In this document: positions 2,012-3,865 of the stretch, piece by piece
Layout: the number at the start of each line of letters is the position of its first letter
Numbering within the stretch: the stretch's first letter is position 1
Source of the DNA: Escherichia coli
GTDB lineage: Bacteria; Pseudomonadota; Gammaproteobacteria; Enterobacterales; Enterobacteriaceae
Assembly (NCBI RefSeq): GCF_044647545.1
Contig: NZ_CP172818.1
DNA: 64,000 bases
Direction: 5' to 3' (one strand)
Program-made: the position numbers and the translations under genes
Notes under the pieces: generated by a model
What the model saw: only the letters and a program-made list of their open reading frames with translations
Told to the model about the DNA's origin: nothing
Database searches by the model: none

Positions 2012-3865
2012 TTACCTTTCCAGTCGCCTTGCTCCGCGCTCAGAGAGACGTTCGCGTACTGCTGACCGTTGCTCGTTATTCAGCCTGACAGTATGGTTAC
2101 TGTCGTTTAGACGTTGTGGGCGGCTCTCCTGAACTTTCTCCCGAAAAACCTGACGTTGTTCAGGTGATGCCGATTGTATACGCTGGCGGGCGTTATCACG
2201 TTGCTGTTGGTTCAGTGGGCGCTGCTGTACTTTTTCCTTAAACACCTGGCGCTGTTCGGGAGTTGCAGACTGAATGCGCTGGCGCGCTGCCTCTCTTCGC
2301 TGCTGGTTCTGCGGGTTAGTCTGCATTTTCTCGCGAACCGCCTGGCGCTGCTCAGGCGAGGCGGACTGAATACGCTCACGCGCTGCCTCTCTTCGCTGCT
2401 GGATCTGCGGGTTAGTCTGCATTTTCTCGCGGACTGCCTGGCGCTGCTCAGGAGAGGCCGACTGATAACGCTGACGAGCGGCGTCCTTTTGTTGCTGGGT
2501 CAGTGGTTGGCGACGGCTGAAGTCGCGGAAGTCGTCATAGCTCCCATAGTTTTCAGCTTCATTAAACCGCTGTGCCGCAGCCTGACGCTGGGTATCTCGC
2601 GTAGTGACTGGTGCTGCGTGTGTTCGTTGCTGAAACTGGCTTGCTGCCGCCTGACGCTGACTGTCGCGCGATAGAGCAGGTAACTGCGTGGCGCTCATGC
2701 CGCCGTTGACATCGGTTTGGTGAAACCGCTTTGCCATATCCTGATCATGATAGGGCACACCATCACGGTAGTTTGGATTGTGCCGCCATGCCATATTCTT
2801 ATCAGTAAGATGCTCACCAGTGATACGGTTGAAATTGTTGACGTCGATATTGATGTTGTCGCCGTTGTGTTGCCAGTCATTACCGTCACGATGACCGCCA
2901 TCGTGGTGGTGATAATCATCATCGTCATGATGATGATGGTCATGATCGTCATCGTCCCAGTCGATGCTGCTGAATAGTGCGTATGTGGTAGCAACGCCCA
3001 TGCTATAGCCGAATCCGCGCACAAAGCTGTCAACAAACGGTTCTCCGGCTGGCGGCGGCAGATAAACTGGCGGATACGCAGTATTGGCCCAGTTCCCGTA
3101 AACCACGGTTGGGTTGTAGTTGGGAATATAGACCACATCAGGATTGGTGGGCTCAATGGAAATGACGGTTGTTGCAGGCTCTGTAATGACAGGGTTGGCA
3201 GTTGAAACGGTATTGGATGGTATGACGGGAGCCGTGACTGTCTGTGTTACCGGTACAGCTTTCTTCGTTGTGGTAATAACTTTCTGTTCGGTTGATGACT
3301 TCAGCGAACCGGTTTGTTGCGCCAGTTGCCGCAATCGCTGTACCGAGTCCATCACGTCCTGCGGCTGCGCCAGAAAAGCATCGCCCAGGTTTTGCACCCA
3401 TTGCGGGTTTTCGCCCATCAACGCCATCAACTGTGGAAAGGCCACCAGTGATTTGACGCTGGCGTCCCACGGCTGGTCAGATACCGCCTGAATAGCAGCA
3501 TCGCCTTGTTTAAGTGGATTATCGTGCGACCATTGCACTGCTTGAGCAACGTTTGCCGGATAGGTTGATGCCATTAACACTTGTGAAAGCAGAGAGTCGG
3601 GGTATAGCGCGACAGGTGCAACCCATTGATCTATTTGAGCAGTGCTGAATGCGGATTTGACGACGGCAGGTGTTACAGGAGGCACGGAAACCGTTGCAGG
3701 AAGCGTAACCGCGGCAGCGTCAGACACAGCCAGTTGTGTCGATTGCGCTTCCACAGGCGCTTCCACTGTGCGGCTTTTTATATATAGCCCGGCAGAGGCG
3801 GCACAAAGCCCGGCACTGCAAATTAGCGCCAGCACATGGGGTTTAAACGGCAAAGTCATTTTCAT
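2012..3865 (-). CDS. yacH: Uncharacterised secreted protein YacH with C-terminal 32-aa tandem repeats and a His/Asp-rich tract
   Basis: ORF 2012..3865 (617 aa); N-terminal signal-peptide-like hydrophobic segment; position between lpdA and acnB matches yacH; function unknown. Confidence 0.8.
   Translation of the reverse strand: MKMTLPFKPHVLALICSAGLCAASAGLYIKSRTVEAPVEAQSTQLAVSDAAAVTLPATVSVPPVTPAVVKSAFSTAQIDQWVAPVALYPDSLLSQVLMASTYPANVAQAVQWSHDNPLKQGDAAIQAVSDQPWDASVKSLVAFPQLMALMGENPQWVQNLGDAFLAQPQDVMDSVQRLRQLAQQTGSLKSSTEQKVITTTKKAVPVTQTVTAPVIPSNTVSTANPVITEPATTVISIEPTNPDVVYIPNYNPTVVYGNWANTAYPPVYLPPPAGEPFVDSFVRGFGYSMGVATTYALFSSIDWDDDDHDHHHHDDDDYHHHDGGHRDGNDWQHNGDNINIDVNNFNRITGEHLTDKNMAWRHNPNYRDGVPYHDQDMAKRFHQTDVNGGMSATQLPALSRDSQRQAAASQFQQRTHAAPVTTRDTQRQAAAQRFNEAENYGSYDDFRDFSRRQPLTQQQKDAARQRYQSASPEQRQAVREKMQTNPQIQQRREAARERIQSASPEQRQAVREKMQTNPQNQQRREAARQRIQSATPEQRQVFKEKVQQRPLNQQQRDNARQRIQSASPEQRQVFREKVQESRPQRLNDSNHTVRLNNEQRSAVRERLSERGARRLER
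2115..2500 (-). repeat. Four tandem 96-bp (32-codon) in-frame repeats inside yacH
   Basis: Protein repeats QQRREAARERIQSASPEQRQAVREKMQTNPQx; DNA copies at about 2283..2378 and 2379..2474 are roughly 90 percent identical, flanking copies more diverged. Confidence 0.8.

Follow-up and report, generated by a model that had tools for sequence, protein, structure and literature searches.

The His/Asp tract of Escherichia coli YacH, a candidate disordered metal-binding loop on a probably exported DUF3300-family protein

A stretch of 64 000 nucleotides of Escherichia coli DNA (RefSeq assembly GCF_044647545.1, contig NZ_CP172818.1; the window) carries the gene yacH, the DUF3300-family product of which contains a 36-residue tract dominated by aspartate and histidine. 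This tract (DWDDDDHDHHHHDDDDYHHHDGGHRDGNDWQHNGDN, residues 302–337, positions 2855–2962; all yacH features are on the minus strand) forms an expanded hairpin turn after the conserved residue W303, and it is plausibly a disordered His-rich metal-binding loop of an exported protein, carried by a family of no known function. It is present in every close orthologue in which both of its sides could be anchored, and its composition appears to be constrained. The stronger reading, that selection maintains the tract as a disordered, exported His/Asp loop with a physiological metal role, is put forward tentatively, at slightly below an even chance.

The 36-residue string quoted in the original prediction is found exactly in a 617-residue open reading frame (ORF). 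The positions assigned to it there, 2884–2965, capture the dense core but not the true span: the minus-strand translation of that interval is IDWDDDDHDHHHHDDDDYHHHDGGHRD (residues 301–327), which stops 29 nt short of the tract at one end and runs 3 nt over at the other. The tract holds 14 acidic residues (Asp or Glu), ten His and one Lys or Arg, with a net charge of −13 and no Cys. Its Asp/His density was confirmed to be far above chance. Asp or His occupies 18 of the 20 positions in residues 302–321, giving a binomial tail of 8e-19 per 20-residue window for an E. coli-like background Asp+His frequency of 0.074, and the next-densest stretch among the 142 stop-to-stop ORFs of at least 100 amino acids in all six frames of the window reaches 9/20. 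The densest core (DDDDHDHHHHDDDDYHHHD, residues 304–322, positions 2900–2956) consists entirely of NAY codons (where N is any base and Y is T or C), with GAY encoding Asp, CAY His, TAY Tyr and AAY Asn. A weak 9 bp periodicity was detected at 2916–2952 using Tandem Repeats Finder.

The yacH coding sequence (positions 2012–3865) was assigned from the 617-residue ORF, its match to Pfam PF11737 and the RefSeq annotation. The ORF matches yacH of E. coli FDAARGOS_497 at 100% identity, a gene annotated as 'yacH: DUF3300 domain-containing protein', and 5425 of the 5426 complete E. coli genomes contain a match. DUF3300 (PF11737) is the sole Pfam match of YacH (E = 2.1e-78, 263 bits against a cutoff of 25); residues 75–333 (positions 2867–3643) cover profile positions 2–227 of 227, making YacH a full-length member. 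A search of YacH against the NCBIfam profiles gave no matching family. Two other ORFs overlap the tract, one of 86 amino acids at 2717–2977 (plus strand) and one of 153 amino acids at 2695–3156 (minus strand), and both exist mechanically, so that either could in principle be the true source of the signal. This is almost certainly wrong, as it is the yacH frame that gives the strong Pfam match and has homologues in the thousands. Both ORFs were rejected as genes on the basis of their translations, which are runs of Ile, Val, Met and Thr because they read NAY codons in antisense or out of frame; the 2695–3156 frame was seen solely where it forms the end of yacH alleles with a frameshift.

The place of the tract within the DUF3300 fold was assessed from family alignments and structure prediction. 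A scan of 1.84 billion cluster representatives gave 9490 DUF3300 relatives at E ≤ 1e-3, 136 of which make up alignment A1, and an AlphaFold2 model of YacH built with this alignment has a mean predicted local distance difference test score (pLDDT) of 74.6. The Pfam-matched region is helical in its N-terminal part and continues into β elements. Residues 70–200 and 230–270 have pLDDT values of about 90–98, and the flanks of the tract (residues 285–305 and 335–380) have means of 71–94 over ten-residue blocks. The tract itself scores 45–51, with residues 310–312 and 319–331 below 50, and is modelled as a disordered, solvent-exposed element that projects from the folded domain. Upstream of the domain, an Ala/Pro/Thr/Val-rich linker (residues 33–72, positions 3650–3769) is also of low confidence (pLDDT 47–69); it has no modelled secondary structure and its sequence is not conserved among orthologues.

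The hairpin that presents the tract is a family feature. Its first arm is a Gly-rich hydrophobic segment (GFGYSMGVATTYALFSSI, residues 284–301, positions 2963–3016) with modelled strands at 285–287 and 299–301. The second arm continues into a short helix (INIDVNNFNRIT, residues 338–349, positions 2819–2854; strand 338–341, helix 342–349) and carries the family motif [IV][DN][IV][DN]VNxxN, which is kept across the representatives, with pLDDT values of about 90 from residue 341 onwards. Beyond the Pfam model lies a further family-wide motif (WRHNPNYRDGVPY, residues 360–372, positions 2750–2788) with the consensus WxHNPxHRxGVPYR in alignments A1 and A2; pLDDT values are 92–94 at residues 361–380. 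At least 90% of sequences share W303; the hairpin and downstream WxHxPxHRxGVPY motifs are part of the A1 and A2 consensus. Turn length was measured from the near-invariant W303 to the strand starting at I338. The turn is exactly four residues long in 93 of the 136 family members (GGGD, GRGD, GHND, HHGD and similar), with a composition of 29% Gly, 18% His, 16% Arg and 11% Asp, whereas turns of 23–38 residues occur only in the YacH (Enterobacterales) clade of this alignment. Most DUF3300 members thus differ from YacH in having the four-residue turn and no His/Asp tract. In the model of a distant homologue, P0144, the same element is a tight hairpin (…GNCN-WGGG-NVNI…) with a four-residue turn, pLDDT values of 91–96 and no tract. 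Other DUF3300 clades have a His/Arg-rich hairpin, for example FDWHRRHVVVVHHHHYHHRPH (P0238, P0251, P0234, P0254, P0256, P0207 and P0261), in which the Asp/Asn alternation of the DVNINVN strand gives way to His; His enrichment at the hairpin therefore recurs elsewhere in the family. Some clades carry DWHRRHVVVVHHHHYHH-type variants at the turn.

Homologues of YacH were collected from 5.8 billion proteins, yielding 7675 sequences, the best 120 of which were examined. The tract could be anchored on both sides in 112 of these, and all 112 contain it. The distance between anchors is 25–44 residues, with a core of 12–39 residues in which the order of Asp and His blocks varies, and the frame around the tract is kept as 'DW-DDD(D)…GGNG(Y/W)QHNGDN-INI(D/N)VNNFN'. 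Escherichia, Shigella, Salmonella, Citrobacter, Buttiauxella, Scandinavium, Enterobacter, Dryocola and Rahnella all have the tract, and its sources span at least two families of Enterobacterales. The tract of K-12 differs from that of the window at two positions (D315N and D330G). Absence or high variability among orthologues had been named in the original prediction as an outcome that, together with a lack of metal-binding activity, would speak against its proposal; the proposal passes this conservation check, the tract being present in every anchorable close orthologue at about 80% Asp+His, although its length and block order vary.

Over the 59 distinct variants of the variable core, the composition is 44% Asp, 36% His, 8% Gly, 5% Tyr, 4% Asn and 2% Arg, and each variant contains 4–14 His and 5–14 Asp. 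In seven orthologous DNAs, the first codon position is G or C in 81% of cases and the second is A in 82%, while the third is divided between T (50%) and C (42%). A single change at the first codon position turns an Asp or His codon into one for Asn or Tyr, yet these two residues together account for only 9%. Synonymous positions are therefore free while replacement is restrained, which argues for evolutionary constraint on the composition of the tract and not on its exact sequence or length.

Export of YacH, assumed in the original prediction, is plausible by inference from an N-terminal hydrophobic helix, the signal peptides of homologues and the modelled domain. The N-terminal export signal or signal-anchor (MKMTLPFKPHVLALICSAGLCAASAGLYI, residues 1–29, positions 3779–3865) contains the highest hydropathy peak of the protein (Kyte–Doolittle mean of 2.04 over 19 residues) and an AlphaFold helix at residues 9–20; the A-S-A at residues 23–25 is a plausible signal-peptidase site. 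Canonical signal peptides are present in distant homologues (for example P0144, …LPALA/VSQQ) and in the DUF2950 partner proteins described below, and signal peptides were noted for both the DUF3300 and DUF2950 families in a comparative study of rhizobia (PMC4653623). In the AlphaFold model a single globular domain includes the flanks on either side of the tract, and the tract should therefore share the compartment of that domain. From hydropathy, homologues and this model, the tract is most likely to be located in the periplasm. The opposite topology would make residues 284–301 a transmembrane helix and place the tract and the Arg-rich C-terminal half of the protein in the cytoplasm, excluding a periplasmic metal role. 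The segment is indeed hydrophobic family-wide (median 19-residue Kyte–Doolittle value of 1.51, with at least 1.6 in 35% of representatives), one homologue is labelled 'Predicted membrane protein' in one source and the very basic C-terminal half of YacH fits the positive-inside rule. In YacH, however, the hydropathy of residues 284–301 is only 0.78, and the segment is modelled as packed β strands both here and in P0144 (pLDDT 91–96), where its hydropathy is 1.99. The residues on either side of the tract form one hairpin, and the flank directly after the Gly-rich segment is acidic, not basic. A transmembrane assignment was thus largely rejected in view of the low hydropathy and the β-hairpin in both AlphaFold models, and a cytoplasmic tract is regarded as highly improbable.

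With a probably exported loop of this composition, metal binding can be framed as follows. The 4–14 imidazoles interleaved with 5–14 carboxylates would chelate divalent metals at multiple sites with low to moderate affinity, Zn2+ being the most likely preferred ion and Ni2+, Cu2+ and Co2+ being possible. The loop may work in the cell envelope in the manner of the disordered His/Asp loop of periplasmic ZnuA, in local metal capture or buffering; alternatively, metal or pH might shift the acidic loop (net charge −13) against the rest of YacH, including its basic C-terminal repeats (net charge +19). The NAY-codon DNA gains and loses triplets by slippage while Asp+His is held at about 80% and the third positions drift. 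On chemical grounds, YacH would very likely bind to nickel or zinc resins in vitro.

The closest natural parallel is ZnuA (PDB entries 2osv and 2ogw for the E. coli protein, and the Citrobacter koseri protein), in which, as in YacH, a disordered Asp/His-dominated loop of about 20–25 residues is inserted in a folded domain of an enterobacterial protein, exported in the case of ZnuA and probably so in that of YacH. In a PDB sequence search with the tract, the ZnuA loop aligned to LFSSIDWDDDDHDHHHHDDDDYHHHD of YacH, and the local ZnuA string is strikingly similar to SIDWDDDDHDHHHHDDDDYHHHD of YacH. Deletion of the loop from C. koseri ZnuA removes two of three zinc sites; the loop is disordered in crystals and its role has been called enigmatic (PMC8900738). 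The YacH tract is longer than the ZnuA loop, purer in Asp and His, and length-polymorphic. Unlike ZnuA, YacH has no solute-binding protein domain (DUF3300 only), no adjacent ATP-binding cassette (ABC) transporter and no Zur-like box. It shows neither the homology of the cluster A-I metal solute-binding proteins nor their Zur regulation and link to an ABC importer, and on sequence comparison it is not homologous to ZnuA or to any known metal-homeostasis protein.

A second comparison is with the C-terminal tail of SlyD, with Hpn and with the His stretches of UreE and HypB. These segments are disordered and His-dense, often with interspersed Asp or Gly, and bind several nickel or zinc ions with micromolar affinity; they are cytoplasmic terminal tails, often contain Cys and are tied to the maturation of nickel enzymes. 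The YacH tract shares with disordered His-rich metal-binding segments a high local His density with carboxylate partners and, by prediction, intrinsic disorder and solvent exposure, but differs from these tails in being an internal insertion at a hairpin turn of a probably exported protein and in having no Cys. The best PDB matches of the tract also include FLAG and polyhistidine tags (DYKDDDDKHHHHHHHH) on recombinant proteins; these are artificial and have no biological meaning, but the likeness suggests that immobilized metal-affinity chromatography (IMAC) resins would retain the native tract.

The proposal of a periplasmic metal binder thus gains from the conservation of the tract, plausible export and a ZnuA-like loop, while no metal-linked regulator box, phenotype or paper was found. 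Several further points weigh against a physiological metal role. The ZnuA match has an E value of 1.4, is not significant and is driven by composition, and FLAG-His tags match equally well. The searched literature contained no metal-binding experiment on YacH, and literature on yacH with zinc or histidine-rich proteins yielded no paper linking the gene to a metal. Simple consensus scans with a set mismatch limit revealed no Zur, NikR, CueR, CusR or Fur-like boxes in the 395 bp upstream; marbox-like matches were present in these scans but weak. The published regulation and phenotypes of yacH concern envelope stress (Cpx, Rob, protamine, ampicillin and cathelicidin) and not metals, and the case for export and topology is made from hydropathy, homologues and AlphaFold. 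Self-copying by slippage could itself partly maintain the Asp/His composition. Natural in-frame E. coli alleles delete 8 or 11 residues of the tract or duplicate 8, and out-of-frame alleles break inside it, at residues 303, 307 and 322 (proteins P0065, P0071 and P0076).

The last of these points lead to the view that the tract is a low-complexity expansion that is tolerated and has no specific function, its Asp/His bias arising from repeat self-copying and not from selection. A slippage-prone NAY run would have arisen in an exposed hairpin turn in an ancestor of the Enterobacterales, where any hydrophilic filler would be tolerated. Tract length is indeed polymorphic even within E. coli (25–44 residues between anchors, with 8-residue deletions and duplications). 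Natural alleles that halve the tract exist, such as the DWDDDDHDHHHHDGGHRD… variant, and because alleles lose 8–11 residues or duplicate 8, its exact geometry is not constrained. The weak 9 bp periodicity and the frameshift alleles point the same way, and the NAY-codon run looks like a frameshift hotspot: in a Salmonella Typhimurium isolate, an 8 bp deletion (GATCATCA) at Asp284 of STM0157, inside the tract, truncates YacH (PMC10048834). Further yacH frameshifts lie upstream of the tract, at 257–297, and some of the frameshifts may be assembly errors. A four-residue turn suffices for the rest of the DUF3300 family, the whole gene is unusually divergent within E. coli (its nucleotide identity to K-12 is 95.5%, compared with 98.7% for lpdA and 97.4% for acnB) and yacH is dispensable, its deletion even improving protamine survival and recombinant expression.

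Against a functionless expansion, the tract is kept in every orthologue that could be anchored, from at least two Enterobacterales families, and also in a very divergent E. coli allele, that of strain AST85 (DWDDDHHDHHHHDDDDHHNHNDDYRDG…). GAT and GAC, and likewise CAT and CAC, are thoroughly mixed and differ between genera, yet the second position remains A in 82% of codons and Asp+His remains at about 80%. Because the synonymous codons are mixed and genus-specific, the runs are not recent pure repeats. Asn and Tyr, a single first-position change away, reach only their combined 9%, and His is enriched at the same turn in other DUF3300 clades (18% in the short turns). On this balance the absence of a specific function is considered unlikely, though by no means far-fetched. 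As separate observations on the gene, yacH shows unusual polymorphism for a locus in the core genome, with only 83 of 5425 genomes matching at 99% identity or above, and a few genomes (for example strain AST85) have a highly divergent yacH, of which 24% aligns at 78% nucleotide identity.

The envelope-stress phenotypes and the distribution of charge in YacH bear on another explanation, in which the tract acts as an electrostatic or pH-responsive module and not as a metal site. It would be a polyanion (net charge −13) at neutral pH and near-neutral on protonation of its His residues, docking on the C-terminal repeats or binding polycations such as protamine, cationic peptides and polyamines, and the behaviour of YacH would shift with external pH or cationic stress. 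Charge is clearly partitioned: the tract, with its ten His, carries −13, and the C-terminal 217 residues (401–617) carry +19. The C-terminal part contains strongly basic, helical tandem repeats of 96 bp or 32 residues (…QQRREAARQRIQSASPEQRQAVREKMQTNP…, positions 2129–2476; 3.6 copies by Tandem Repeats Finder), with helices across residues 457–547 in the AlphaFold model. The length classes of yacH among E. coli (1758, 1764, 1854 and 1950 bp) fit the gain or loss of 96 bp units, suggesting that copy number varies between strains. In strain AST217, an allele of 1950 bp has an internal stop and is annotated as a pseudogene. Kinship of the 'SPEQRQAVREKM' repeats with CpxP, Spy and ZraP (LTXXQ) was considered, an idea that was attractive because yacH is Cpx-regulated; it was rejected, as no LTXXQ or Metal_resist profile and no PDB chain matched. 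The sole Pfam match at E ≤ 10 on residues 445–617 is a sub-threshold match to DUF3106 (E = 0.0025, 18.7 bits against 24.3).

The published biology of yacH is consistent in part with an electrostatic role. The gene is CpxR-regulated and its mRNA is repressed by protamine, partly in a CpxR-dependent manner, and a yacH deletion survives protamine better (PMC9600279); its expression rises modestly with a cathelicidin-derived peptide (PMC6737244). In a rob mutant exposed to butanol, yacH is strongly reduced (PMC7537768). Ampicillin induces the yacH promoter (PMC8865558), deletion of the gene benefits recombinant expression (PMC7376861) and yacH has been listed as an uncharacterized E. coli gene (PMC12133099). 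A CpxR half-site repeat was not found upstream of yacH at two mismatches or fewer. One metagenomic DUF3300–DUF2950 pair has an HdeA-family gene immediately after it, encoding a periplasmic acid-stress chaperone, but this neighbour is a single case and the support for an electrostatic role is all indirect. The tract is conserved, whereas conservation of the C-terminal repeats does not extend beyond Escherichia, the tail being different in Salmonella, Citrobacter and others. A purely electrostatic role was judged distinctly unlikely; it is in any case compatible with metal binding. A combined proposal, in which an Enterobacterales-specific metal- or pH-gated switch has been grafted onto the DUF3300 hairpin and, in E. 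coli, the loop may dock on the basic C-terminal repeats and so couple envelope metal or proton status to Cpx/Rob-linked cationic-peptide sensitivity, is speculative and rated as very unlikely.

The genomic context of DUF3300 provides a further comparison. In Salmonella and Buttiauxella the locus order is acnB–yacH–DUF2950–lpdA, and DUF3300 (PF11737) is likewise followed by DUF2950 (PF11453) in a Rahnella-like contig and in three of four distant loci examined. The DUF2950 genes of Salmonella (L004, 5639–6430), Buttiauxella (L005, 5681–6529) and the Rahnella-like contig (L007, 2262–3119) lie directly downstream of yacH and encode signal peptides. Universal co-localization of the two families, with signal peptides and no known function, has been reported (PMC4653623). 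In the window, yacH and lpdA are separated by about 70 bp (1941–2012), so that E. coli yacH, with no DUF2950 gene immediately downstream, falls outside the DUF3300–DUF2950 operon module. No DUF2950 was found in the 64 kb window by tblastn, and no DUF2950 DNA was detectable at blastn sensitivity in the 5,426 complete E. coli genomes. E. coli as a species therefore appears to have lost the gene that usually accompanies DUF3300. In one distant genome (locus L001, 3707–7527), DUF3300 occurs without DUF2950 just downstream of EgtB/EgtD-like genes (DinB_2+FGE-sulfatase and Methyltransf_33). Such neighbours are of the type that synthesizes ergothioneine, a histidine-derived thiol, and the association is probably coincidental.

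yacH is flanked by lpdA and acnB, and the gene order in this region of the window is aceF–lpdA–yacH–acnB–yacL–speD–speE–yacC–cueO. The copper oxidase gene cueO (9688–11238) had been described as lying two genes from yacH; the count is incorrect, as five genes (acnB, yacL, speD, speE and yacC) and about 5.8 kb intervene. Because of this distance and the unrelated genes in between, its proximity to yacH is not meaningful. cueO carries a Met/His-rich segment (10846–10905, plus strand) unrelated to yacH, a known copper-binding region of the enzyme. The second most Asp/His-rich stretch of the window is an acidic Asp/Tyr run (37216–37275, plus strand) near the start of an 850-residue ORF, presumably the N-terminus of PBP1b (mrcB).

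DUF3300 and DUF2950 form a very large exported family of over 9,000 representative clusters, for which neither a function nor a solved structure is known. The conserved His/Asp loop offers a concrete handle on the uncharacterized YacH, and Salmonella, in which DUF2950 is kept, and E. coli, in which it has been lost, provide a natural comparison. In practical terms, the tract probably makes YacH a native contaminant of IMAC preparations. If the loop does not bind metal, it would be a documented case of compositionally constrained, slippage-driven loop expansion. If it does bind zinc or another metal there, in the periplasm, YacH would be an added player in enterobacterial envelope metal handling, and the loop might help to explain the enigmatic loop of ZnuA.

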